A program made the position numbers and the translations under genes. Below, one piece after another: positions 18,133 to 63,921 of a stretch of DNA of 64,000 bases. The notes under the pieces are model-generated. The model saw only the letters and a list, made by a program, of their open reading frames with translations, was not told the DNA's origin and searched no databases. How positions within the stretch are numbered: position 1 is the first letter of the stretch; each line of letters opens with the position of its first letter. Source of the stretch: Parcubacteria group bacterium LiPW_30 (lineage in GTDB: Bacteria > Patescibacteriota > Minisyncoccia > Phycocordibacterales > VMEP01); contig VMEP01000001.1 of assembly GCA_007375595.1 (NCBI GenBank), positions 340,694 through 404,693 on the forward strand. Direction: 5' to 3'.

Positions 18133-18771
18133 ATGGGACAAATCACCATCGACCAATCCCATCAGGTTCTTGCCACTCTGGCTGTGAATACTGACTGGAC
18201 AACGATTGACTTCACGAACTCGGGGCTTCAGGATTTCATCGTTCGCAACCCGAAGGAAGCTGGCAGACAGTTCACGGCGTTCCTCAAGAACGGCGGGAAG
18301 GTCCTCGTCGGCGAACCGAAGGTCATCACCATCAAACGTGGTCGCTTCAATCCAACCGAGTTCATCGGACAGGGCTGGAGCATCATTACGGACGAGACGG
18401 ACACTCGTTCCACGGCGCTCACCGAACTGGACCTCACCAAGATTCAGCAGGTGACGATGCTCAAGAGCGGCGAGACGTACGTGAAGGGCGAGGAGAAGCT
18501 CAGGCGTCTGAAGAAGTCGGGCAACATCCGACTGGACGCCGACGTCTTCCACACGCTGTGGGAGAACCAGCATCTCATCCCCGAGTCGTGGAAGGAGAAG
18601 GTGAACGGGAACACTCGGTTCATCTACTTTGACGGCACGGTCCTTCGGGACTCGGACGGTAGCCGTTACGTTCTGTACCTGTATTGGAGTGACGGTGCGT
18701 GGAACTGGTACGTGGGTTGGCTCGGCAACGACTGGTACGATCACAACCCGTCTGCCGTTCTCGCAAGTTAG
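18133..18771 (+). CDS. hypothetical protein (GC-rich) with a Trp/Tyr-rich C-terminal module
   Basis: SD aaggagaaagaca; C-terminus RYVLYLYWSDGAWNWYVGWLGNDWYDHNPSAVLAS is duplicated at 19128-19253. Confidence 0.5.
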   Translation: MGQITIDQSHQVLATLAVNTDWTTIDFTNSGLQDFIVRNPKEAGRQFTAFLKNGGKVLVGEPKVITIKRGRFNPTEFIGQGWSIITDETDTRSTALTELDLTKIQQVTMLKSGETYVKGEEKLRRLKKSGNIRLDADVFHTLWENQHLIPESWKEKVNGNTRFIYFDGTVLRDSDGSRYVLYLYWSDGAWNWYVGWLGNDWYDHNPSAVLAS

Positions 18772-19111: not shown

Positions 19112-19330
19112 ATGATGTGCTATACAATCCTTCGGAACTCGGACGGTAACCGTTACGTTCTGTACCTGTATTGGAATGACGGTGCGTGGAACTGGAACGT
19201 GAATTGGCTCGACAACGACTGGAACGATAACAACCCGTCTGCCGTTCTCGCAACTCTCTTCATTTCTCTCCGGCTTTCGCTGGAGAGTTTTGTTTTGTGC
19301 GTCTTTAAATTTTTAATATTTGTGTTATAG
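19112..19330 (+). pseudogene. partial duplicate of the C-terminal module of the 18133 gene (fragment or small paralogue)
   Basis: about 125 bp near-identical to 18641-18768, encoding NRYVLYLYWNDGAWNWNVNWLDNDWNDNNPSAVLA; upstream part of the ORF-track reading frame looks non-coding. Confidence 0.3.
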
Positions 19331-19621: not shown

Positions 19622-19698
19622 TTATCTCACGTGGAGGAAAGTCCGAACACTTCCGGTCTAACCTTTGGGCGACCGGAGAAGGGTAGCGGGTAACGCCC

Positions 19699-19760
19699 GT
19701 CGTCCAGCACTTATTTTGTAGTTTGGAAACTTCTAAGTTGCAAAATAAGTGCTGGATAGA
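19699..19760 (+). repeat. 62-nt hairpin repeat copy 1 (in rnpB P12 position)
   Basis: gtcgtccagcacttattttgtagtttggaaacttctaagttgcaaaataagtgctggataga; 15-bp perfect stem. Confidence 0.7.
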
Positions 19761-20010
19761 GGTGCGAGCAGTGACGTCGATGCCGAAAGGCTAGACCTCC
19801 CACGTGGAGGAATCCCATAGAAATATGGGAGTGAAACGGCTAAATCCTTACTTAAGTGCAAGGCCGTGCCCCGTGGGATAAAAGATTCCGATTTTATTAA
19901 TAATACCCTGTTAATTTACAGTTTCAGTATTGTTACGTAGTTCGGAATTTGTTATCCCATGGGGAGTGCCGCTTGAGCCCGTGAGTAATCACGGGCCTAG
20001 ATAAATGACT

Positions 20011-20072
20011 GTCGTCCAGCACTTATTTTGTCATTTGGAATCTTCTAAGTTGCAAAATAAGTGCTGGATACA
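20011..20072 (+). repeat. 62-nt hairpin repeat copy 2 (between rnpB P2 3' and P4 3' strands)
   Basis: copy 1 and copy 2 differ only at about 4 loop positions. Confidence 0.7.
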
Positions 20073-20100
20073 GAATTCGGCTTATAAGTTCAGGACAAGC

Positions 20101-27620: not shown

Positions 27621-27989
27621 ATGCTTGAATTTCAAGACAAAAAAAGATTTAGAAGAATTCTGTATTCTCGGGTTACTTTTGTTTTGGTTTTTATTCTTTG
27701 CGTTTTTGTTGGTAGAGCAGCGGTTAGTATGTATAAAAGCGATAGTCTAACCGGGGAGAAAAGAAAGATAGCCGAAGATGAGTTGGTGGCGGTCAGGGCG
27801 CGGGAAAATTCGTTAAAGGCGCAAATTATTAGTCTTAAGACAGAGAGGGGGGTTGAAGAGGAGCTTAGGGGGAAGTTTAGGGTTGTTAAAAACGGAGAAG
27901 GGGTTATTATTGTTGTTGATCAGGAAAAAAAAGAGGCAACGACCACAAAATCTGGCTTTGCCAATTTTTTTAAATGGTTTTTAAAATAA
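27621..27989 (+). CDS. FtsB/DivIC-like septum-formation initiator (TM plus coiled coil)
   Basis: single N-terminal TM followed by a heptad-like segment. Confidence 0.4.
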   Translation: MLEFQDKKRFRRILYSRVTFVLVFILCVFVGRAAVSMYKSDSLTGEKRKIAEDELVAVRARENSLKAQIISLKTERGVEEELRGKFRVVKNGEGVIIVVDQEKKEATTTKSGFANFFKWFLK

Positions 27990-28012
27990 GTTTTAGTTTT
28001 GTGAGATAAAAA

Positions 28013-28081
28013 GCGAGTATAGTTTAGTGGTAGAATGACTGCTTCCCAAGCAGTAGATCGGAGTTCGATTCTCCGTACTCG
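28013..28081 (+). tRNA. tRNA-Trp (anticodon CCA)
   Basis: cloverleaf: acceptor GCGAGTA/TACTCGC, anticodon loop TCCCAAG, T-loop GGAGTTCGATTCTCC. Confidence 0.85.
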
Positions 28082-28089
28082 CACATTAT

Positions 28090-28123
28090 AAAAAATACCC
28101 CATCTTTGCGGGGTATTTTTTAT
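28090..28123 (+). terminator. terminator hairpin after tRNA-Trp
   Basis: aaaaataccccatctttgcggggtatttttt. Confidence 0.6.
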
Positions 28124-28132
28124 AATGACGAG

Positions 28133-28222
28133 GGGGATCGAAAGCCGGAGGCAGACGTGCCGAGGCGGGGTCGCGCAAATTTCTAGCAAGAAATTATGCG
28201 TGACCGATTCTCCGTACTCGCA
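28133..28222 (+). repeat. tRNA-3'-end-associated repeat element, short form (copy S1), ending in an 18-nt direct copy of the tRNA-Trp 3' end
   Basis: tcgaaagccggaggcagacgtgccgaggcggggtcgcgcaaatttctagcaagaaattatgcgtgac + cgattctccgtactcgca (= tRNA-Trp 28064-28081). Confidence 0.7.
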
Positions 28223-28337
28223 CGAATTCTTGTTAAAAACTTGATTATGGTTATTTTGTATTATTTTCGTGTAGATTTGTGTTTTGGCTTTATGATATAA
28301 TCAGCGTCCATTAGAAATTAACGGGTGTGGAATATGA

Positions 28338-28450
28338 ATCCCGTTAGAGGCCGCGGTCGCGCGGGATGGGAAATAAATAATATAAGAAGTAGAAGTACGA
28401 TTTATAAGTTTAATTAATTTGCAGGAAGTGGATTGACCGCGACCTGCCTC
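28338..28450 (+). promoter_or_regulatory. long-range stem-loop in the 5' leader of the glutaredoxin gene
   Basis: cccgttagaggccgcggtc (28338-) pairs with gaccgcgacctgcctctaaacggg, which ends at the start codon. Confidence 0.3.
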
Positions 28451-28458
28451 TAAACGGG

Positions 28459-28692
28459 ATGAAAAAAGTCACTATTTATAGCACTCCAACTTGCGTTTAT
28501 TGTAATATGGCAAAAAGCTATTTTCAGGAAAAAAATGTTCCTTACGAGGAGTTCAATGTTGGGCAAGATTTTGAAAAACAAAAGGAAATGATTGAATTAA
28601 CTGGTCAGCGTGGTGTGCCAGTAATTGTTATAGACGGAGAAGCAATAGTTGGTTTTAATAAACCAAGGGTTCAGGAGCTGTTGGGTTTATAG
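28459..28692 (+). CDS. glutaredoxin-like (NrdH/Grx) thioredoxin-fold protein
   Basis: CVYC active site after beta1; GVPVIVIDGE motif. Confidence 0.75.
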   Translation: MKKVTIYSTPTCVYCNMAKSYFQEKNVPYEEFNVGQDFEKQKEMIELTGQRGVPVIVIDGEAIVGFNKPRVQELLGL

Positions 28693-28699
28693 GTTTAGA

Positions 28700-28870
28700 T
28701 AATTCAGGGCGGAATCGGTCACGAATAAAATTTTGCTAAATTTTTGCGCTGTCACAGATATTTTCCTGCTGGAAAATTCTGCGACCCCGACTCGGCTCGA
28801 CAGCCTCCGTCTCTCAATTGCTTCACTTATCGCAATTGAGCCCGCCTCGCGCCGTCGCGCTCCGGCCGGC
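28700..28870 (-). repeat. tRNA-associated repeat element, long form (copy A), downstream of tRNA-Arg
   Basis: about 150 nt near-identical to 36945-37085; read on the minus strand it is ccggagcgcgacggcgcgagg..ggggtcgc..hairpin..cgtgaccgattcc, the same termini as the short form. Confidence 0.7.
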
Positions 28871-28924
28871 ACCATGTAAAAACACTCACTTATGTGAGTG
28901 TTTTTACATGGTGCCCTCGGCAGG
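28866..28924. terminator. 22-bp palindromic hairpin incorporating the tRNA-Arg 3' end
   Basis: ggcaccatgtaaaaacactcac ttat gtgagtgtttttacatggtgcc. Confidence 0.6.
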
Positions 28925-28985
28925 AATCGAACCCACAATTACCCCTTAGGACGGGGTAGTTATATCCATTTAACTACGAGGGCGC
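28909..28985 (-). tRNA. tRNA-Arg (anticodon CCT), CCA encoded
   Basis: acceptor GCCCTCG/CGAGGGC, anticodon loop GTCCTAA, T-loop TTCGATT; the T-stem has two G.U pairs. Confidence 0.7.
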
Positions 28986-29169
28986 TTTAAAACCATACCA
29001 TATTAAGATGTTTTTGGTTGTTGATTATCGCCATTGTTTATTTTTATTTAGTATTGTATAGTTTGGGCTGATTTTCCATTTAATTTAAAGAAAGGTAGGT
29101 GGAAAAGTTCTTTGAGCTTAACGAGCTTTGGAGGTTTTGTTTTCAAAAACATACAAAAAGGAAAGAGCT

Positions 29170-29577
29170 ATGCAACAAGTGCAAACTGTATCCAAAAAGA
29201 AGGCCAAGCCAGCCTTCGGCAGGAAATCTTCCGCTCGGGCTGATCATTTTTTCGACCGGCATTCGCCGGTCGAAGCTCGGCCAGTGGTGGCGTACTCGCC
29301 GGGATTTGCGGCGAGGCACATGGTTCCAGTACGCGTCGGAGAAAACGGGCACATCACCGCCAGTGTTTCCGAACTTTGCGGTTTTTTGCGCAATGGCAAC
29401 GCATCGGTTATCGGCGTGAAGAAGATGGTCGAAGTCGAAATCATGCGCGGGAAGCGAATGCGTGTTGTCACGCGCGAAGTGATTGACCCCGGTCCCAACT
29501 GCGATGTCGTCGTTTTCACGAACATGACGACGCCACATTGCTACGCCCTGAAGTCTCAGGTCAAGAGCGGCCTATAA
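29170..29577 (+). CDS. hypothetical protein in a GC-rich island
   Basis: SD aaaggaaagag + ATG (MQQVQT); GC-rich; terminator follows. Confidence 0.45.
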   Translation: MQQVQTVSKKKAKPAFGRKSSARADHFFDRHSPVEARPVVAYSPGFAARHMVPVRVGENGHITASVSELCGFLRNGNASVIGVKKMVEVEIMRGKRMRVVTREVIDPGPNCDVVVFTNMTTPHCYALKSQVKSGL

Positions 29578-29596
29578 GAAGGGAGGCCCAAGATAA

Positions 29597-29625
29597 AAGG
29601 CGCGCTTTAATACAGCGCGCCTTCG
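29597..29625 (+). terminator. hairpin terminator
   Basis: aaggcgcgctttaatacagcgcgcctt. Confidence 0.55.
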
Positions 29626-29664
29626 ATATTTATCACTATTTATCTATATGCTATAGTATTCCCC

Positions 29665-29967
29665 ATGGACCAGGAATTACGCGATTTACTTGAAAAGAAT
29701 CTTCAAATATCAGAGGAGAATAACGAGCTTTTAAGGAAATTATACCGTTCTCAAAAATGGTCTCAGTTTATGAGTATTATGTATTGGGTGCTTATAATAG
29801 GTATTACTTTTGGAACGTATTACTATCTTCAGCCATACATAGAAACGCTTTTAGGAACATACATTGATTTAATGAGTGGGATTGATACGATAAACCAAAA
29901 AAGTCAGTCACTCCCAAACATGAATACGATTAGTGATTTTCTAAGAGGAATAAGTGCTCCTAAGTAA
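29665..29967 (+). CDS. small membrane protein, hypothetical
   Basis: one central TM helix; no motif. Confidence 0.35.
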   Translation: MDQELRDLLEKNLQISEENNELLRKLYRSQKWSQFMSIMYWVLIIGITFGTYYYLQPYIETLLGTYIDLMSGIDTINQKSQSLPNMNTISDFLRGISAPK

Positions 29968-29978
29968 GAAATAAATAT

Positions 29979-30051
29979 GCCGAGGTAGCTCAGTTGGTAG
30001 AGCATTTCCCTGAAGAGGAAGGGGTCGCCGGTTCAAATCCGGCCCTCGGCA
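29979..30051 (+). tRNA. tRNA-Phe (anticodon GAA)
   Basis: GCCGAGGTAGCTCAGTTGGTAGAGC...CTGAAGA anticodon loop...GGTTCAAATCCGGCCCTCGGCA. Confidence 0.85.
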
Positions 30052-30215
30052 CACGAACAAAGTGAAGTGGGATGAGGGAACGAGTGAACTGCTTCACTCG
30101 TGTCCGGATTTGAAGGTCGGAACATGTCGCAAAGCGACAGTGAGACGGGGTCGAGAGTACTTATGAGCGTAGCGAATTAGTAACTCGTGACCAAATCCGG
30201 CCCTCGGCACACGAA
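30052..30215 (+). repeat. repeat element downstream of tRNA-Phe plus a direct repeat of the tRNA-Phe 3' end and downstream flank
   Basis: interior gtgaactgcttcactcgtg..gacggggtcgagag..ctcgtgac related to the S1/S2 elements; caaatccggccctcggcacacgaacaaagtgaggtggg (30192-) repeats 30034-30071. Confidence 0.65.
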
Positions 30216-30891
30216 CAAAGTGAGGTGGGGTGATGGAGCTTTTTAACAGAAGAGAACCATTGATTTGTGGTTTATTTGGTCTGCAGAATATACTTTATAC
30301 TGATATACTTTAAAAATGGAAAAAGTTGAAGTAGAAATAACCACGAAAGAATTGCTTGAACGGTATAACGAAAGATTCGCCGACAAAAAGGATATAACTC
30401 TTAAAGATCTTTCTGAAATGAAAGAAAGTGGAATCTCCGCTGAAATGTTTCTTGAGTTTCTTCGAGAAAAGTACGACTATTTATTTCACGGCTCAAGAAA
30501 TGAGATTTCTTTTGCGGATGGAGTAAAACCTTCAAAAGATGGCGTTATTTTTTCTTCAGATAATCCTTCCGTTGCAATACTTAAAGCTATTTACCGTAAT
30601 AACGCTAAAAATCTCGGCTATCCACTTAATTTAAAGGAAGACAAGTCTAATATGGTATTGGTTATTGATGAACCACAAGAAGATACTATTGGCGAGAAAG
30701 GTTACGTTTATGTTATTTCTGATAAAACAGGTTTTAAAAGAGATCCCAATAGTAATTGGCAATACTTAAAAGAAAATACAGCGGAAGAAAATACCCCTTT
30801 TGTTAAAAGGGTTGAGGTAGAAAGAGCTGATTTTAAATATCCCGTGCAAGTAAATTAGTAACCAGCGATTGAGTCCAGCCCTCGGCACACT
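30192..30891 (+). mobile_element. about 0.7-kb insert bounded by the second and third copies of the tRNA-Phe 3' end, carrying one ORF (candidate decayed integrative islet)
   Basis: third copy gagtccagccctcggcaca at 30873-30891 (1 mismatch to tRNA-Phe ATCCGGCCCTCGGCACA); no integrase present. Confidence 0.45.
30316..30858 (+). CDS. hypothetical protein (cargo of the tRNA-Phe-flanked insert)
   Basis: 180-aa ORF; no recognisable motif. Confidence 0.45.
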   Translation: MEKVEVEITTKELLERYNERFADKKDITLKDLSEMKESGISAEMFLEFLREKYDYLFHGSRNEISFADGVKPSKDGVIFSSDNPSVAILKAIYRNNAKNLGYPLNLKEDKSNMVLVIDEPQEDTIGEKGYVYVISDKTGFKRDPNSNWQYLKENTAEENTPFVKRVEVERADFKYPVQVN

Positions 30892-30895
30892 ACAA

Positions 30896-30925
30896 AACAA
30901 AAACTCCGCGATGTGCGGAGTTTTT
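30896..30925. terminator. bidirectional terminator
   Basis: aaaaactccgcgatgtgcggagtttttgtttt. Confidence 0.6.
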
Positions 30926-30933
30926 TGTTTTTA

Positions 30934-31440
30934 TTATATTGAGCGAACTTTAAGTTTGGTTTGTTTTTCGCGATCAACTTTTGGAAGGCGAATGACAAGT
31001 AGCCCGTGTTTTTCAATTGCTTCGGTTTCTTCAGGCTCTATTTCTTGTGGAAGCATTATTGTTCTTGAGAATGAACCCCAATAGAGTTCATTGTAAAAAT
31101 AGTCATCATCCTCACCTTCTTTATTTTCTTCGCGTTTACCACGGATTGTTACCATGTCGCGAGTTATAGATATTTGAAGATCGTCTGGTTTTACTCCAGC
31201 AACAATTGATTTTATTATTATCTCAGTTGGTGTTTGGTAAACATCAACTGTTAGTTGAGCTTCTTCGTTTTCTTCTTCTAACCAACCAGCCTCTCCTTTG
31301 TGGGCTCCTTTTTCTTCATTTTCCTCTCGAGTTTCCTCGCTCTCCTCATTTAAAGAAACACTGCCAGTTAATTTTTCGAAAAATGATCTTTTATCTTTTG
31401 ACATAGGGGGCTTAGTTAATTTTTTATAAAATTTATTCAC
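30934..31440 (-). CDS. Hsp20/alpha-crystallin family small heat-shock protein
   Basis: alpha-crystallin domain VDVYQTPTEIIIKSIVAGVKPDDLQISIT...GLLVIRLPK. Confidence 0.8.
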   Translation of the reverse strand: MNKFYKKLTKPPMSKDKRSFFEKLTGSVSLNEESEETREENEEKGAHKGEAGWLEEENEEAQLTVDVYQTPTEIIIKSIVAGVKPDDLQISITRDMVTIRGKREENKEGEDDDYFYNELYWGSFSRTIMLPQEIEPEETEAIEKHGLLVIRLPKVDREKQTKLKVRSI

Positions 31441-36919: not shown

Positions 36920-37090
36920 CATGGTTGGGGGGTCGGCTACACATAAAATTTTGCTAAATTTTTGTGCAGTCACAGATATTTTCCTGCTGGAAAATTCTGC
37001 GACCCCGACTCGGCTCGCCAGCCTCCGTCCCTCAATTGCTTCACTTATCGCAATTGAGCCCACCTCGCGCCGTCGCGCTCCGGTTTTCGA
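36920..37090 (-). repeat. tRNA-associated repeat element, long form (copy B)
   Basis: near-identical to 28727-28865; includes hairpin ctcaattgc..gcaattgag and palindrome attttcctgctggaaaat. Confidence 0.7.
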
Positions 37091-37103
37091 CTCCTCACTA
37101 TAT

Positions 37104-37135
37104 ATAGCTTACGTTTGTGGTCAGGAATAATTTTA
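37104..37135 (+). repeat. right copy of the ~32-nt direct repeat flanking element B
   Basis: see 36877-36912. Confidence 0.6.
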
Positions 37136-37139
37136 TTGC

Positions 37140-37200
37140 CGTCGCAATAAAATTTTCACGACCCTGGCTCGCGATTTTGTCTGCTGACAAAATATCGCTC
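37140..37200 (-). repeat. E2-type repeat element downstream of tRNA-Val
   Basis: cacgaccctggctcgcgattttgtctgctgacaaaatatcgctccgcctcg, homologous to 39360-39425 and 63720-63770. Confidence 0.6.
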
Positions 37201-37210
37201 CGCCTCGCAC

Positions 37211-37245
37211 AAGCTAAAAATCTCCCGCAGGGGAGATTTTTTTGC
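37211..37245. terminator. palindromic terminator after tRNA-Val
   Basis: aaaaatctcccgcaggggagattttttt. Confidence 0.6.
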
Positions 37246-37250
37246 GCTTG

Positions 37251-37323
37251 TGCGCGATAGAGGAGTCGAACCTCTGACCTACCCCACGTCAAGGGGTCGC
37301 TCTACCAACTGAGCTAACCGCGC
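37251..37323 (-). tRNA. tRNA-Val (anticodon GAC)
   Basis: revcomp GCGCGGTTAGCTCAGTTGGTAGAGC..CTTGACG anticodon loop..GGTTCGACTCC..ATCGCGCA. Confidence 0.8.
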
Positions 37324-39351: not shown

Positions 39352-39496
39352 GTGCGGAGATGGGAGGAATTTCTCCCTCGGCTAAATTTTTGTCGCCACA
39401 AAAATTTGCCTAGGCACCAGCTCGTCATTTTGTCTGCTGACAAAATAAGACTCCGCTGTTCGAATCCTCACGCAAGTGAAGCAGTTCACTTGCTCC
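39352..39496 (-). repeat. E2-type repeat element downstream of tRNA-Ser, ending in a 16-nt direct copy of the tRNA-Ser 3' end
   Basis: tgcggagatgggagga at 39352-39367 equals 39531-39546; interior hairpin attttgtctgctgacaaaat; inverted partial T-loop copy gttcgaatcctc at 39440-39452. Confidence 0.65.
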
Positions 39497-39530: not shown

Positions 39531-39531
39531 G

Positions 39532-39618
39532 CGGAGATGGGAGGATTCGAACCTCCGATGAGGTTACCCCCATGCCTGATTTCGAGTCAGGTGCCTTCAA
39601 CCGCTCAGCCACATCTCC
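39532..39618 (-). tRNA. tRNA-Ser (anticodon CGA), class II with long variable arm
   Basis: revcomp GGAGATGTGGCTGAGCGGTTGAAGGC..CTCGAAA anticodon loop..long variable arm..GGTTCGAATCCTCCCATCTCCG. Confidence 0.8.
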
Positions 39619-39747
39619 AATATTTGAGTGGCTTGAATGATAACGTTTTTTTGCATTTTTAGCAAAAAATGTTATGATTTCACGGTGTTTTTGGCTAAAA
39701 CAATTTCTTATGAAATTGTTCGCCCGACCAAGCAAAGCTTGGATTAG

Positions 39748-39819
39748 GGCCCTATCGTCTAACGGTTAGGACACAAGCTTTTCAAGCTTGGAACCAGGGT
39801 TCGATTCCCTGTAGGGTCA
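39748..39819 (+). tRNA. tRNA-Glu (anticodon TTC)
   Basis: GGCCCTATCGTCTAACGGTTAGGAC..CAAGCTTTTCAAGCTTG..GGTTCGATTCCCTGTAGGGTCA. Confidence 0.8.
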
Positions 39820-39882
39820 CAAAAATTTGCGGAAGCATAATTTTTTATGATTTTTAAAAGTGACAAATTCACTTTGTAAAAA

Positions 39883-39968
39883 ATCGAAAACCGGAGCGCG
39901 ACGGCGCGAGGTGGGGTCGAGCAAATTTCTAGCAAGAAATTATGCGTGACCGATTCCCTGTAGGGTCA
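39883..39968 (+). repeat. tRNA-3'-end-associated repeat element, short form (copy S2), ending in an 18-nt direct copy of the tRNA-Glu 3' end
   Basis: atcgaaaaccggagcgcgacggcgcgaggtggggtcgagcaaatttctagcaagaaattatgcgtgac + cgattccctgtagggtca (= 39802-39819). Confidence 0.7.
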
Positions 39969-40188
39969 TTCGGTTTTCAGTAAAGGTTAGTTGTTTCGAT
40001 TTATCCCCCATCTCCGCTAAGATTAAAACATGAAAAATTTTTCATTTTCTAACGTAACAGTATTCATAATCTTTTTCGGAATAGCTTTAATTGAGGCGAT
40101 TCAGAAAGATAATTGGCTAGAAGCGTTTCTTTTTCTTGCATTAGGGGCAATGTCTCTCTGGGCTGATTTTCAGAAAAAATAATTATTT

Positions 40189-51725: not shown

Positions 51726-52674
51726 AATAATTAATTAAAAAAATCCGCCACCTTTATGGGTGAAGCAGATTATTTCCCAGATTCGCTTGTGTACTACTTA
51801 AACTGGAGCCAAGCGAGGTTAACTGAGAAATCCGCTATTAATGACAAGAAGGTAACATAAAAGCCCCAAAAACTCAATATTCATGATTTTACTTTTCCTT
51901 TTTAAAAACACGATAAAATTCTGCTGAATTTTTCTATACTCACGCCGAGCGTTCCGTAATGTTTTTAAAAAGGAAAAGCTTTAGTTTTTTTGAATAAAAA
52001 ACAACAAAAAGAAAATAAAAATTCTAAATAAAAAAAGTTAAAAGCCCGCAATGATGCGGGCTCCCCCAATTCGGCTTTTACGGTCGTCTGGGGGGACGAC
52101 GATAGGGCTCGTTTCGGCGCATGGCGGTCTCCATTGTGTGGACATGCCGTTTCGGGTTTTTGTCAGGAACCCGAAATTAAACAACTACCTCCTTTTTGTT
52201 GTTGAAGATGTGAATGAGGATACGGCCGGGGCAACGCGCTGTCGCCCCGGCCTCCCCAAACGCGGGAGAGTTTCCCGCGAACAGTCGTCCGCCGATGGCG
52301 TTATCCCAAGATGGGACAGGCCGAGCGAGGCGTGACGGCTGGTGCTACCCCAACTTTCGTTGGGTCTTGCTGGCTTGCCGCCGGCCTGGTTTCAGGTCGC
52401 GCCGGCGCTGCCGAGCTTCTTCTCGATGATGGCCTTGCCCTTGTCGTCGATGGCGTTATGGAATACATTCCTCTTTGCCGTTGCCGGCGGGCTGTGCACT
52501 TGCATGGGGGGGGCTCCTTTCAGAACTTCAACTTTTGGTTTTTAGGTTAGAAACCAAGGGTACCAAACTGCCCCTTTTTGAAACGTGCTGCTAGGGAAAA
52601 GGTTAGCACACAGCCATGTTATTGTCAATAGCCAAAATATCCTTTATTTAAAGGATATTTTGGTATATTAACGT

Positions 52675-53952
52675 TTAAATTTCATGGAAAAGTGTCTTTT
52701 TTCTCTCCTCAAAAAAGAGAACAAACGTTAGCCAGGCGAGAATACTCATGGCGCCGGCGATTAAAATCGGAAGATTAACAGAGATTGTGGCAGCAAATCC
52801 AGCGAGTATTGGTGGAAGTGCTTGGGCAAGCGACTGGATTGATTGATTGATTCCAAGAATTTCACCTTGGGATTCTCCGTCAGCTAAGTTTGAAACGATT
52901 GCGTTGTAGTTTGGCATTGAGAGGCCATTCCAAATTGAAATAAAAGGAACAATTAAATAAAGATAAACTGCTTTGTCTGGCAAAAGTAAAAATGGGAAAG
53001 TTAACCCAAGTAGTAATGTTGAAAAGCGGAGAATTTTTACGGAGGAAAATTTAAAGGAAAGTGGGCGAACAATGAATCCTTGGGTTATTGCGATACAAAG
53101 CCCCATGTATGCGAAAAGATTTCCGATATTGCTTTGGGTAAAAGAAAACTTATCTATAAGAAATACTTGGAAGAATTGAGTAAAAAAAGAAAAACCGAAA
53201 GCTAAAAGAAAAATAACAATGAAAATAACTCGGAGATTTTCCATGCGAAAAGCTTTGTTGATATTTTGGAACCCAGTTAGTAGTGAGATTTTTTTGTGAA
53301 CTCTTGTTTTTAGTGTTTCTTCAAATTGGGAATGAACTAGTAGAATGTTTGCAATTGTAAGAATTGCTGAAAAGAAAAATGGCGTTGCGTAATTGAAGGA
53401 GCTTGAAATTGATGGATCGGAAAGCACTCCACCTAAAAACGGTCCGATAATAAAACCAAAACCGAACATCATTCCAACGAGACCGAAGTTTCGAGCTTTG
53501 TTATTTTCGTCACTAATGTCAGCTATGGAACTATAAGCAACAGACAAACTTCCTCCGGTAAAACCAGAAACGATTCGACCCAAAAACATAATAGGTAAAC
53601 TAGCGGTAATTATCCCCACCGCTGTCATTAAATATCCAAGAAACATTCCACTTAATGATGCGAGGAAAATTGGCTTACGTCCGATTCTATCTGATAGTCC
53701 GCCTAAAATTGGAGCCCCGAAGAATTGTGCTAGTGGATAACAGGCAAGAAGAAAGCCTAAGATAATGTTTCGCACTTCGGTGCCATATGATGGTGGGAGG
53801 ATGCCCGTTTGGTGCATATCAAGGAGGAGTGGGGCAAAAATCGGGATAACGATACCAAGCCCGACTAAGTCGATAAAGACAATTGCGATTATTGGGAGTA
53901 GGGGGTTTTTTCTTAGTGACATAAATTTTTTTAAAATACTTTTGAAAAACAC
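52675..53952 (-). CDS. major facilitator superfamily transporter
   Basis: 12 TM; MFS motif A GGLSDRIGRKP between TM2 and TM3. Confidence 0.8.
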   Translation of the reverse strand: MFFKSILKKFMSLRKNPLLPIIAIVFIDLVGLGIVIPIFAPLLLDMHQTGILPPSYGTEVRNIILGFLLACYPLAQFFGAPILGGLSDRIGRKPIFLASLSGMFLGYLMTAVGIITASLPIMFLGRIVSGFTGGSLSVAYSSIADISDENNKARNFGLVGMMFGFGFIIGPFLGGVLSDPSISSSFNYATPFFFSAILTIANILLVHSQFEETLKTRVHKKISLLTGFQNINKAFRMENLRVIFIVIFLLAFGFSFFTQFFQVFLIDKFSFTQSNIGNLFAYMGLCIAITQGFIVRPLSFKFSSVKILRFSTLLLGLTFPFLLLPDKAVYLYLIVPFISIWNGLSMPNYNAIVSNLADGESQGEILGINQSIQSLAQALPPILAGFAATISVNLPILIAGAMSILAWLTFVLFFEERKKTLFHEI

Positions 53953-54100
53953 GTATAATTTTCTGCTGAAAATTTACTATGCTCGCGTCGCCACGCTGTG
54001 CAATGTTTTTCAAAAGTATTTTGGGATGACTAAGTGCAAAAATGGTATTTTAAAAAAGACACTTTAAAGCAACCAAAATATTTGGTATAGTCATTGGAAT

Positions 54101-63577: not shown

Positions 63578-63836
63578 AGAGGGAGACTCGGTCAGGGGTA
63601 AAATTCAAGAAGAGATGGAGACCCGGTCATGAATAATTTTGAAGACAAAATAAGTTCACATAGATTGTGAGGAGAGATTCGGTCAAGAACATTTTTACTC
63701 GTCGTCACTCGTAAAAATTTCTCGACCCTGCTCGTTCGACCATTTCTGCTGAAATGGTACCCGAACTCGCTTTCGAGTCTCCCCTCCGAGCAACAAACAA
63801 AATCACCCGATGTTTTCACATCGGGTTCTTTGTTTG
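63578..63836 (-). repeat. array downstream of tRNA-Leu: terminator, inverted copy of the tRNA 3' end, E2-type element, and three degenerate direct copies of the tRNA-Leu 3' end
   Basis: ttcgagtctcccctccgagca (63773-63793) is an inverted copy; gagggagactcggtca (63578-), gatggagacccggtca (63613-), gaggagagattcggtca (63669-) are degenerate direct copies of ggaggggagactcg; E2 core ctcgaccctgctcgttcgaccatttctgctgaaatgg. Confidence 0.55.
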
Positions 63837-63921
63837 TGGTGCTGGAGGGGAGACTCGAACTCCCAAGCCTTGCGGCACTAGTTCCTAAGACTAGCGCGTA
63901 TACCAATTCCGCCACTCCAGC
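63837..63921 (-). tRNA. tRNA-Leu (anticodon TAG), class II, CCA encoded
   Basis: revcomp GCTGGAGTGGCGGAATTGGTA..CTTAGGA anticodon loop..long variable arm..GGGAGTTCGAGTCTCCCCTCCAGCACCA. Confidence 0.8.

Follow-up and report, generated by a model that had tools for sequence, protein, structure and literature searches.

A probable nested insertion scar at a patescibacterial tRNA-Phe gene and a family of structured elements located behind tRNA genes

The gene for tRNA-Phe(gaa) studied here lies in a stretch of 64,000 nt from Parcubacteria group bacterium LiPW_30 (assembly GCA_007375595.1, contig VMEP01000001.1, positions 340,694 to 404,693 of the forward strand), referred to as the window. It is intact, occupies positions 29979-30052 on the plus strand (29979-30051/52 according to ARAGORN and Rfam) and reaches 73.3 bits with the Rfam tRNA model; its T-loop reads TTCAAAT, with A57, and the CCA end is not encoded by the gene. 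An initial annotation of this DNA had described the region behind the gene as an integration hotspot, in which three tandem copies of the tRNA 3' end bracket a 135-nt repeat element of a family labelled E and a cargo open reading frame (ORF).

The first two copies of the tRNA tail, like all features of this locus described below on the plus strand unless stated otherwise, belong to a direct repeat of 46 nt, found by a repeat finder at 30034-30079 and 30192-30237 with 93% identity. The recurrence of the tail after the element is thus confirmed, and the repeat is longer than initially described, extending to 30237. It spans the 3' half of the T-loop, the 3' strand of the T-stem, the 3' strand of the acceptor stem and 27 nt of trailer. 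The first copy comprises the tail S1 (tRNA nt ~56-74, within the gene) and a trailer, y1, which holds a degenerate antisense acceptor strand, GATGAGGG, as the 5' strand of a helix P0; in the DNA fold, 30073-30078 are paired with 30201-30206. The element E1 follows at 30080-30192 and was recognized by a covariance model of the family (R1), by the DNA fold and by an inverted repeat (I2). Hairpin H1 (30080-30101, loop CTGC) is followed by an antisense copy of the T-arm, CCGGATTTGAA (30104-30114), by a short P-stem GTC/GAC (30116-30118 with 30144-30146) that flanks GGA/GAG, by hairpin H2 (30122-30141) and by hairpin H3 (30149-30192), which is preceded by GGGG and terminates in CGTGACC. Model R1 matches 30096-30212 with 59.4 bits (E 1.5e-19), and the minimum-free-energy DNA fold of E1 (-31.1 kcal/mol, z -4.5) reproduces all of these helices.

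Right after CGTGACC, the second tail S2 begins at the equivalent of nt 56/57 and continues into a second trailer, y2 (S2 and y2, 30192-30237). The latter (30212-30237) corresponds to the left arm of a second element copy, E2; at the orthologous locus L157, the y sequence stops with ...ggagc precisely at the start of H1. In place of the E2 interior there is a cargo segment (30238-30852), consisting of a 78-nt leader and the 180-aa ORF (30316-30858; hereafter ORF180), which is as initially described. A right-end relic of E2 (30853-30872) contains the H3 3' strand AATTAGTAAC and a decayed CGTGACC, which now reads CAGCGATT; it overlaps the stop codon of ORF180 and aligns with ...gaattagtaactcgtgacc of L157 and with 30175-30192. 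The third tail, S3 (30873-30891, GAGTCCAGCCCTCGGCACA), is decayed and represents the original displaced tRNA-Phe 3' end. This copy, initially given as 19 nt with one mismatch, is real, whereas the count has to be corrected to three mismatches in 19 nt, only one of them in the last 16, with an exact run of 13 nt, GCCCTCGGCACAC, at 30878-30890. The 12-mer GCCCTCGGCACA occurs three times in the window with 0.1 occurrences expected, and none of 100 shuffles reached three. Copies 2 and 3 have AATTAGTAAC in common just upstream (30175-30184 and 30853-30862), and the identity amounts to 76% across 45 nt. Behind S3, a terminator scan located the ancestral bidirectional intrinsic terminator (30899-30925), with an orthologous hairpin in L152 and L157, which serves both tRNA-Phe and the convergent HSP20 gene (30934-31440, minus strand). 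Since this is the only plus-strand terminator-like site between tRNA-Phe and the HSP20 gene, E1 and ORF180 belong to the tRNA-Phe transcription unit. The locus would then read, in order, tRNA-Phe, E1, S2, E2 with its interior swapped for ORF180, S3 as the original tail and the original terminator.

A metagenome search with the 100-aa protein encoded just upstream of tRNA-Phe delivered 29 loci, and the order of this gene, tRNA-Phe and the HSP20 and PrsW genes, both in the opposite orientation, is kept in about 25 of them. Three states of the locus can be distinguished. In the empty state (L152/L153, with an HSP20 that is 87% identical, as well as L162, L169, L171, L175, L176 and L177) neither element nor ORF is present; tRNA and HSP20 gene are 11-56 nt apart with just the common bidirectional terminator between them. 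In the element-only state, found in L157 (HSP20 96% identical, no ORF), trailer y, a single element, CGTGACC and GAACCCGGCCCTCGGCACA lie in this order between the tRNA and the same terminator. The window and locus L021 represent the element-plus-ORF state, in which a four-way alignment reveals an extra 678 bp bounded by the repeat GCCCTCGGCACAC; the cargo segment is missing from L157, L152 and about 20 further syntenic loci. The empty sites are seen as differences between strains. From this comparison S3 was identified as the original tRNA tail, AATTAGTAAC as the H3 3' strand and y2 as the left arm of E2; S3 is moreover contiguous with the ancestral terminator, as the tail is in L157 and L152. 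An origin of the third copy as a coincidence associated with the terminator was ruled out, as L157 has GAACCCGGCCCTCGGCACA|ctacaaaacaaaaaactccgc... directly after the CGTGACC end of its element. The orthologous loci therefore support the proposed hotspot with successive insertions and with an ORF that is cargo and no integrase, and that has decayed or is mobilised in trans; among the orthologous loci compared, the ORF was found in the window and L021, bounded by repeats. Site-specific integration at tRNA-Phe is what we infer from these states. One part of the initial description has to be changed: the E element is not just a sequence enclosed between the repeats; the recurring inserted unit is the element itself, which is present at every tRNA of the window and across a phylum.

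The T-loop of tRNA-Phe differs between relatives: TTCGAAT in L152 and TTCGAAC in L157, compared to TTCAAAT at 30032-30038 of the window. The antisense arm of L157 already reads TTTGAA, so the window gene may have been templated from the antisense copy of the element by palindrome correction. On the 5' side, a partial copy of tRNA-Phe (GCCGAGGTA...CTCAGTTGGTA), interrupted by a GC-rich hairpin (cctgcccgaatgtacgattcgg...cgggcgggg), was observed upstream of the real gene at L021:9561-9644 and L157:206-317; it is absent at 29960-29978 of the window and in L151. In L021 (16650-16860, minus strand), the resident tRNA-Val(gac) is split in the D-loop by an insertion with inverted ends CCCGCCCG.../...CGGGCGGGG, which carries a second, different tRNA-Val(gac) gene, while the tRNA-Val gene of the window (37250-37323) is intact. 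This insertion looks like a separate element family with its own replacement tRNA, and the partial copies at tRNA-Phe are 5'-side insertion scars with the same inverted ends.

For ORF180 we detected no match in Pfam or PADLOC. All of its 21 homologues, including the 97% identical protein of L021, originate from Patescibacteria or metagenome sources and none has a Pfam domain. In L023, L025 and L028/29 the homologues, with a conserved C-terminus, are located in unrelated operon-like contexts without a tRNA. The AlphaFold2 model (pLDDT 90.7) yielded best PDB matches below significance to Tpt1, rifampin ADP-ribosyltransferase (Arr), PARP16, tankyrase and pertussis toxin; a profile search also touches ARR-2, and the motif F57-H-G-S-R61 (FHGSR) is invariant across all homologues. 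Taken together, these sub-threshold matches, the ARR-2 hit and the motif suggest a weak similarity to the ADP-ribosyltransferase fold, which we regard as a lead and not as a finding. ORF180 as the element's own gene was ruled out by the homologues in operons without tRNA and by unrelated cargo at other loci. Parallels exist at tRNA-Asp (L129), with an ORF that is RibD_C-like judging by its sequence, and at tRNA-Ser (L064), with two other ORFs; these proteins are unrelated to ORF180, and in both cases the cargo is placed between the inner tRNA tail and a decayed element with the outer tail. Cargo is rare, nearly all second tails being found 100-200 nt from the tRNA. Two Logan contigs with ORF180 (L001 and L022) start 108-122 nt upstream of the ORF, inside the 46-nt repeat, which indicates that the elements break assemblies at tRNA loci.

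Inspection of 3' flanks and a scan with R1 revealed that all seven tRNA genes of the window are followed, on the same strand, by a GC-rich structured member of the family. The layout usually comprises a palindromic terminator, an antisense T-arm, CGGAG-hairpin-CGAG, GGGGTCG, a long hairpin closed by CGTGACC and a direct tRNA copy, which starts at the T-loop of the local tRNA. The antisense segments match their own tRNA, as with CCGGATTTGAA for Phe, GAGGATTCGAAC for Ser and GGGAGACTCGAA for Leu. Downstream of tRNA-Gly(ccc) (28013-28084), a canonical short form at 28124-28225 on the plus strand ends with GTGACC|GATTCTCCGTACTCGCAC (R1 99.7 bits), and the member behind tRNA-Glu(ttc) (39748-39820), also on the plus strand, is found at 39870-39971 (90.3 bits). 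The others are on the minus strand: 28726-28866 behind tRNA-Arg(cct) (28909-28983), with one or more members (63.1 and 18.3 bits) that were included in a four-way comparison; 36948-37224 behind tRNA-Val(gac), with two members in tandem (63.6, 25.9 and 37.1 bits); 39352-39477 behind tRNA-Ser(cga) (39531-39618), where the antisense segment matches the Ser T-arm (33.1 bits); and 63661-63790 behind tRNA-Leu(tag) (63837-63921; 43.4 bits), followed by further decayed TGACCGRRTCTCC relics. One of the Val cores is 94% identical to the Arg copy across 151 nt (repeat D1). Apart from the copy after every tRNA, R1 recovered two diverged members away from tRNA genes, at 53931-54020 and 51890-51976 on the minus strand (31.4 and 25.2 bits). 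These are closed by perfect AT-rich inverted repeats of 13-18 nt (AAAATACTTTTGAAAAAC / GTTTTTCAAAAGTATTTT), of 18 nt in the case of 53931-54020, and do not possess the GGGGTCG/GTGACC foot.

Close relatives differ in these elements even among strains whose proteins are 92-97% identical. Compared to the window, the syntenic L021 has an extra element between tRNA-Arg and the older element, none after tRNA-Ser and a second one after tRNA-Gly. At tRNA-Arg(cct), four close relatives have an element a only, an element b only, a followed by a tail and b, or a variant of a; here hairpins H1 and H2 are swapped between elements, so that module swapping is seen directly, and tRNA-Gly differs likewise. The pair of tRNA-Ser(cga) and tRNA-Glu(ttc) is inverted between the window (39531-40040) and L021 (18258-18520) with breakpoints in the elements, and a Ser 3' remnant with the Ser trailer (tcgatttatcccccatctccgc...attaaaacatgaaaaattttt) is located after the Glu element of the window. 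The remnant and the inverted pair point to recombination between oppositely oriented elements.

To survey the family, a 25-base core pattern with two gaps was run against one genome per species. At least 120 loci were obtained, most of them labelled as Patescibacteria/Paceibacteria or Saccharibacteria and a few otherwise or as unclassified. Among the matches listed, 95 of 123 have a same-strand tRNA upstream within the 8-kb locus, in 88 cases at a distance of 13-90 nt, and at least 35 anticodon types have the element downstream. Members directly after 3' ends resembling those of tmRNA (ssrA; ...GGGTTCGATTCCC..ATCTCCAC) were recognized by eye in L135, L131, L043, L048, L120 and L150, each with antisense and sense copies that match, which would make the T-arm/acceptor module the target and not tRNAs as a class. 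Again among the matches listed, the first base after GTGACC is tRNA nt 57 in 74 of 85 cases, and the exact antisense run, with TCGAA at its end (complementary to T54-A58), is most often 11 nt long. Copies found by the covariance model alone have the same borders with the local T-loop sequence (TTTGAA for Phe). The direct repeat has a length of ~10 to 46 nt and sometimes includes 25 nt or more of non-tRNA trailer. The trailer behind the tRNA is usually new sequence, and the native trailer is duplicated by more than 10 nt in just 2 of 85 cases, by which a 'flap' model using the native trailer was ruled out for most copies. The overwhelming majority are units of 100-200 nt without cargo, and a copy accompanies only about 20% of the non-index tRNAs of genomes with the element. 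A subfamily (L034, L044, L059, L098, L102 and L152) has an extra 14 nt, GAAAG(C/T)GTACTC(A/G)C, between GTGACC and the tRNA tail, which looks like the 3' strand of an older H3 hairpin; its members have a common AT-rich left part and lack the antisense T-stem.

The fold was examined with an alignment (A1) of 53 short-form copies, in which four helices of a three-way junction were tested: P1, formed by the antisense T-arm and the sense copy, the 3-bp stem flanking GGA/GAG, H2 and H3. Over these sequences 89% of the cells are paired, compared to 73% in shuffles and 33-45% with the partner slid, and the covariation score of 0.43 (0.15 in shuffles) was reached by none of 500 shuffles. The 3-bp P-stem is paired in 100%, with C-G, A-U, G-C and U-A at one position, and H3 in 96%, with changes on both sides in 10 of 16 pairs. 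Since G.U (or G.T) pairs are frequent on the tRNA-sense strand only, the fold belongs to that strand, in the form of RNA or of single-stranded DNA. The copies also contain tandem-GA and GNRA-like motifs. In Rfam only tRNA exceeded the gathering thresholds, with nothing credible at E<=5 across 27950-30300. A second tRNA-like gene, a split tRNA or an intron was ruled out, because the complementarity of the antisense arm extends to T-loop, discriminator and trailer.

The two arms behave differently from the core. Over nt 59-65, the divergence from the tRNA amounts to ~21-22% in the antisense arm and likewise in the right-hand sense copy, and the two have changed in an essentially independent manner: at positions where the right copy departs from the tRNA, the arm agrees with the tRNA in 88 instances, with the right copy in 21 and with neither in 20. 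Selection for pairing between the two arms was ruled out by this three-way comparison, and the independent divergence marks both arms as decaying relics of an insertion rather than as a maintained pairing.

On balance, and with no great confidence, we favour the explanation that the locus is a nested insertion scar at the tRNA-Phe T-loop, left by small (~100-150 nt), non-coding, strand-specific hairpin elements that occur throughout the phylum. The low occupancy of tRNAs, the gains, losses and module swaps in relatives, the Ser/Glu inversion and the decaying arms all favour a mobile element; the behaviour is mobile or recombinogenic and unlike that of a conserved RNA gene, though the core keeps its compensatory changes. 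Each insertion would take place on the tRNA-sense strand, precisely between C56 and G57; the tRNA would be rebuilt upstream, and the displaced tail (nt 57 to ~74 or beyond) would remain downstream as direct repeat. The inserted unit would consist, first, of a new trailer, often with a palindromic terminator and occasionally with cargo genes, and second, in most cases, of the same tRNA tail in antisense, which stops at T54 and is sometimes split by H1, before the core with its short covarying stem, GGA/GAG tandem-GA loop, H2, GGGG and the long H3 ending in CGTGACC. Antisense arm and sense tail could form a stem that mimics the T-arm/acceptor duplex of the tRNA gene and is capped by the core. 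Strand transfer would follow GTTC (G53-T-T-C56), the tetranucleotide targeted by IS91-family elements. If the folded unit and the tRNA gene underwent a Campbell-type strand exchange at C56|G57, the result would be the observed order of tRNA[1-56], element-borne tail, trailer or cargo, antisense arm, core and displaced tail. The movement would be brought about in trans by an enzyme encoded elsewhere and acting on the folded single strand, with the chemistry of a tyrosine recombinase or an HUH nuclease; the tRNA-specific arms might be exchangeable modules borne by the element or be copied from the target at insertion.

An enzyme was searched for in several ways. No recombinase gene is located between 30053 and 30891, and the window ORFs that were checked include neither a recombinase nor a transposase or reverse transcriptase; of the 59 called ORFs, about half were compared with Pfam directly and others were covered by the gene calls of L021, while some 20 small ORFs were never scanned. 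Y1 or Y2 HUH transposases are likewise missing among the ORFs scanned in the window and the 8-kb loci. The nearest downstream ORFs of 110 elements belong to 107 Pfam families without enrichment of recombinase genes, Phage_integrase being found once. UPF0102 (YraN-like, PD-(D/E)xK nuclease family) was observed as nearest downstream neighbour five times among the 110 (L039, L049, L095, L132 and L136), which is probably conserved synteny with a tRNA rather than a functional link. A specific pattern gave no match in IMG/VR (2.9 million viral contigs) and blastn none in INPHARED (50,697 phage records) or PLSDB (72,556 plasmid records); the 19 IMG/VR matches of a loose pattern, GGGGTCGN{20,50}GTGACCGATTC, were rejected as chance matches in GC-rich phage coding regions. 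With no such enzyme among the checked window ORFs, no enrichment of recombinase genes among the neighbours and no member in the viral, phage and plasmid collections, the element, if mobile, is non-autonomous.

Several observations weigh against the nested insertion scar as just outlined. Neither an enzyme nor a circular junction nor a product of excision was observed. Because the search pattern contained TCGAA and GTGACC as fixed parts, their apparent invariance is in part ascertainment. The subfamily without antisense T-stem occurs at Lys, Arg and Glu tRNAs, including the Glu copy of the window, with direct repeats that are nevertheless tRNA-specific, so the proposed stem is not obligatory. 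Cores that are 94% identical are found at different tRNAs (Arg and Val) with entirely different arms, and an att site borne purely by the element would need frequent module exchange. The independent drift of the arms leaves no selection for pairing after insertion, and the range of repeat lengths is atypical for one recombinase.

A related proposal, which we regard as possible though doubtful, is that the elements constitute a new class of mobile DNA that homes to the T-loop of tRNA and tmRNA genes and writes an antisense copy of its target beside a hairpin core. Here a nick at C56|G57 would be followed by resynthesis of the tRNA tail and by fold-back copying, to which the long palindromes with the terminator at their centre, which extend into the tRNA tail, seem to point. 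If true, it would imply an undescribed strand-transfer enzyme, or a hijacked host enzyme of tRNA or DNA processing, in Patescibacteria and a major driver of tRNA-locus turnover, inversions and acquisition of small genes in reduced genomes.

Those palindromes, near-perfect and centred on the terminator loop, also fit an explanation without any dedicated enzyme, in which host replication or repair spread the core by template switching or gene conversion anchored on the near-universal palindromic T-loop sequence. The T-loop TTCGAA would be seen as TCGAA at the left border and as GA(A/T)TC at the right one, the antisense arm would arise by fold-back at the palindrome of the terminator, and natural transformation with homologous recombination would spread the filled alleles. 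This would account for borders that are both T-loop halves in inverted orientation, for identical cores with target-specific arms, for the module shuffling among close relatives, for an inverted Ser/Glu pair with breakpoints in elements and for arms that are neutral after insertion. However, compensatory changes in three helices would not be expected to persist across the phylum in a core that is copied passively, the junction is exact to the nucleotide in 74 of the 85 matches listed, and the trailer is usually new and no duplicate of the native one, by which this explanation becomes improbable.

The T-loop-anchored tail repeats, the regenerated tRNA, the arrays with the newest unit nearest to the gene and the cargo would all agree with attL/attR scars as well. 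The loci might accordingly be read as what is left of ordinary islands or prophages with an integrase gene and an integration site in the T-loop, with the core as surviving attP-proximal arm; tycheposons display the same features (bioRxiv 10.1101/2020.12.28.424599), and one of the 110 neighbours is a Phage_integrase gene. We consider this rather improbable, since the same core is found at at least 35 anticodon types and at tmRNA, whereas integrase families are site-specific, since the cargo-less unit of 100-200 nt predominates overwhelmingly, without match to phages or plasmids, and since a strand-specific covariation of helices is not expected of protein-binding arms in double-stranded DNA.

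It is this covariation, together with the restriction of G.U pairs to the tRNA-sense strand, that would speak for a functional RNA of the tRNA transcription unit, either a module for processing or stability or a small RNA that mimics tRNA; the repeats would then be functional mimicry, with the arms forming a helix like that of acceptor and T-arm. The orientation, which is always that of the tRNA, the tandem-GA and GNRA-like motifs and the predicted co-transcription with tRNA-Phe, where no terminator intervenes, point in the same direction. Most copies, however, are located behind an intrinsic terminator, only about one in five of the non-index tRNAs in element-bearing genomes has a copy, the presence varies among closely related strains, tandem decayed copies and copies away from tRNAs exist, the arms decay neutrally and the direct repeat can take in at least 25 nt of non-tRNA trailer. 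A functional RNA is therefore quite unlikely.

Least of all do we expect a retro-insertion, in which a nick in the T-loop would prime reverse transcription of an element RNA ending with ...GUGACC, or priming would occur from the tRNA 3' end, with the antisense arm as analogue of a retroviral primer-binding site copied from tRNA: one fixed junction with a direct repeat of variable length, as in target-primed reverse transcription, an antisense arm covering ~21 nt at the end of the tRNA gene and a structure with G.U pairs in the transcribed strand would suit it, but no reverse transcriptase was found among the scanned window ORFs or neighbours, the arm copies the gene or precursor (with trailer, without CCA) and not the mature tRNA, and terminators precede most copies.

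Among known systems, islands that integrate in tRNA or tmRNA genes, reportedly including the ssrA islands of Dehalococcoides, resemble the loci described here in the insertion in the 3' part of a gene that is regenerated, in the partial tRNA copies as scars, in tandem arrays with older units outward, in the cargo and in rearrangements between copies. A direct repeat of the tRNA 3' part at both ends and the intact tRNA at one end were found here as in such islands. Integrases with a T-loop sublocation are on record (Williams 2002, according to its citation in bioRxiv 10.1101/2020.12.28.424599), and tycheposons are tRNA-integrating elements of Prochlorococcus (bioRxiv 10.1101/2020.12.28.424599). 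Unlike islands, the typical unit here is non-coding and 100-150 nt in size, with no integrase or replication module in or beside it; one family serves at least 35 tRNA species and tmRNA, with 94% identical cores at Arg and Val, and its units combine a conserved hairpin core, covarying and strand-specific, with an antisense copy of their target. The architecture of the scars is that of tRNA-integrating islands and tycheposons, without their encoded integrase and their site-specific choice of a tRNA. We rate the element as of the tRNA-targeting, trans-mobilised integrative kind; that its insertion chemistry is new is offered as a tentative suggestion.

The forked hairpin of the CTX-phage attP(+) imitates dif, and integrative mobile elements exploiting Xer (IMEX) make use of XerCD (PMC3089051). 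As in attP(+) and in the attC sites of integron cassettes, opposite target-like half sites ~80-110 nt apart fold, on one strand only, into a hairpin of ~120-150 nt whose stem imitates the chromosomal target; the element is a strand-specific imperfect palindrome in which structure is conserved beyond sequence, as typical for attC, and the tips of the hairpins vary in length. With CTX, the inverted target-like sites and the forked hairpin that mimics the target correspond in geometry only. The unit is cassette-like in being free of a recombinase, with an ORF occasionally upstream of the structured site. In contrast to attP(+), the target is the T-loop of tRNA and tmRNA genes and not dif, and nothing points to a single-stranded phage or a circular form. 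Unlike in attP(+) and attC, the arms of the stem decay once inserted, and one subfamily is without them. Instead of the attC boxes R'' (RYYYAAC) and R' (GTTRRRY), the borders are ...TCGAA and CGTGACC|GA, and the arrays start at tRNA genes and not at attI, with no IntI among the window ORFs scanned and no attI or Pc platform.

IS91-family elements use GTTC as target (IS801, IS1294) and have a subterminal palindrome and a terIS end (bioRxiv 10.1101/2025.01.24.634351). In common with these and with IS200/IS605, the insertion described here is oriented and occurs immediately 3' of GTTC (G53-C56), again in 74 of the 85 matches listed; as in IS91, a palindrome, H3...GACC, abuts the cleavage site at the right end, and classical terminal inverted repeats are missing. 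However, IS91 and IS200/IS605 make no target duplication, whereas a target repeat of 10-46 nt always accompanies the element, which could be reconciled with IS91-type insertion if the left copy is borne by the element. Moreover, its left end is not a fixed sequence, and no Y1/Y2 transposase was found in the scanned ORFs.

Small, non-coding and abundant units that form long hairpins, differ in presence between strains and are non-autonomous are also known as MITEs (miniature transposable elements with inverted repeats), in bacteria Correia, RUP, ERIC, Nezha and others; PATE is a miniature derivative of HUH elements. The family described here shares these properties. Unlike in MITEs, the inverted arms are local tRNA target sequence and not transposon-encoded terminal repeats, the duplication is long, variable and anchored at one nucleotide, and the specificity for one tRNA feature is extreme. 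In the literature searched, analogous systems were found but no description of the T-loop hairpin element.

Patescibacteria comprise a large share of bacterial diversity and have tiny genomes; to our knowledge, few mobile elements have been described in them. The broader significance of our results lies in the element family, labelled E in the initial annotation, which regenerates the tRNA gene, leaves att-like scars, occasionally imports genes, which come to lie behind a strong tRNA promoter, and causes inversions between tRNA loci. The family would account for much of the strain-level variation and of the assembly breaks at tRNA loci. It also points to an enzyme that acts in trans and recognizes the T-loop of tRNA genes with nucleotide precision; such an enzyme would be of mechanistic interest and possibly a tool. 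Covariance model R1 provides a practical handle for annotation, and the empty and filled alleles make mobility directly testable.

Further repeats were noticed in the window, comprising a direct repeat of 126 nt at 18641-18766 and 19128-19253 with 93% identity and two copies of a palindromic unit of 54-70 nt at 19692-19761 and 20004-20073. Both repeat families appear to be unrelated to the tRNA elements.

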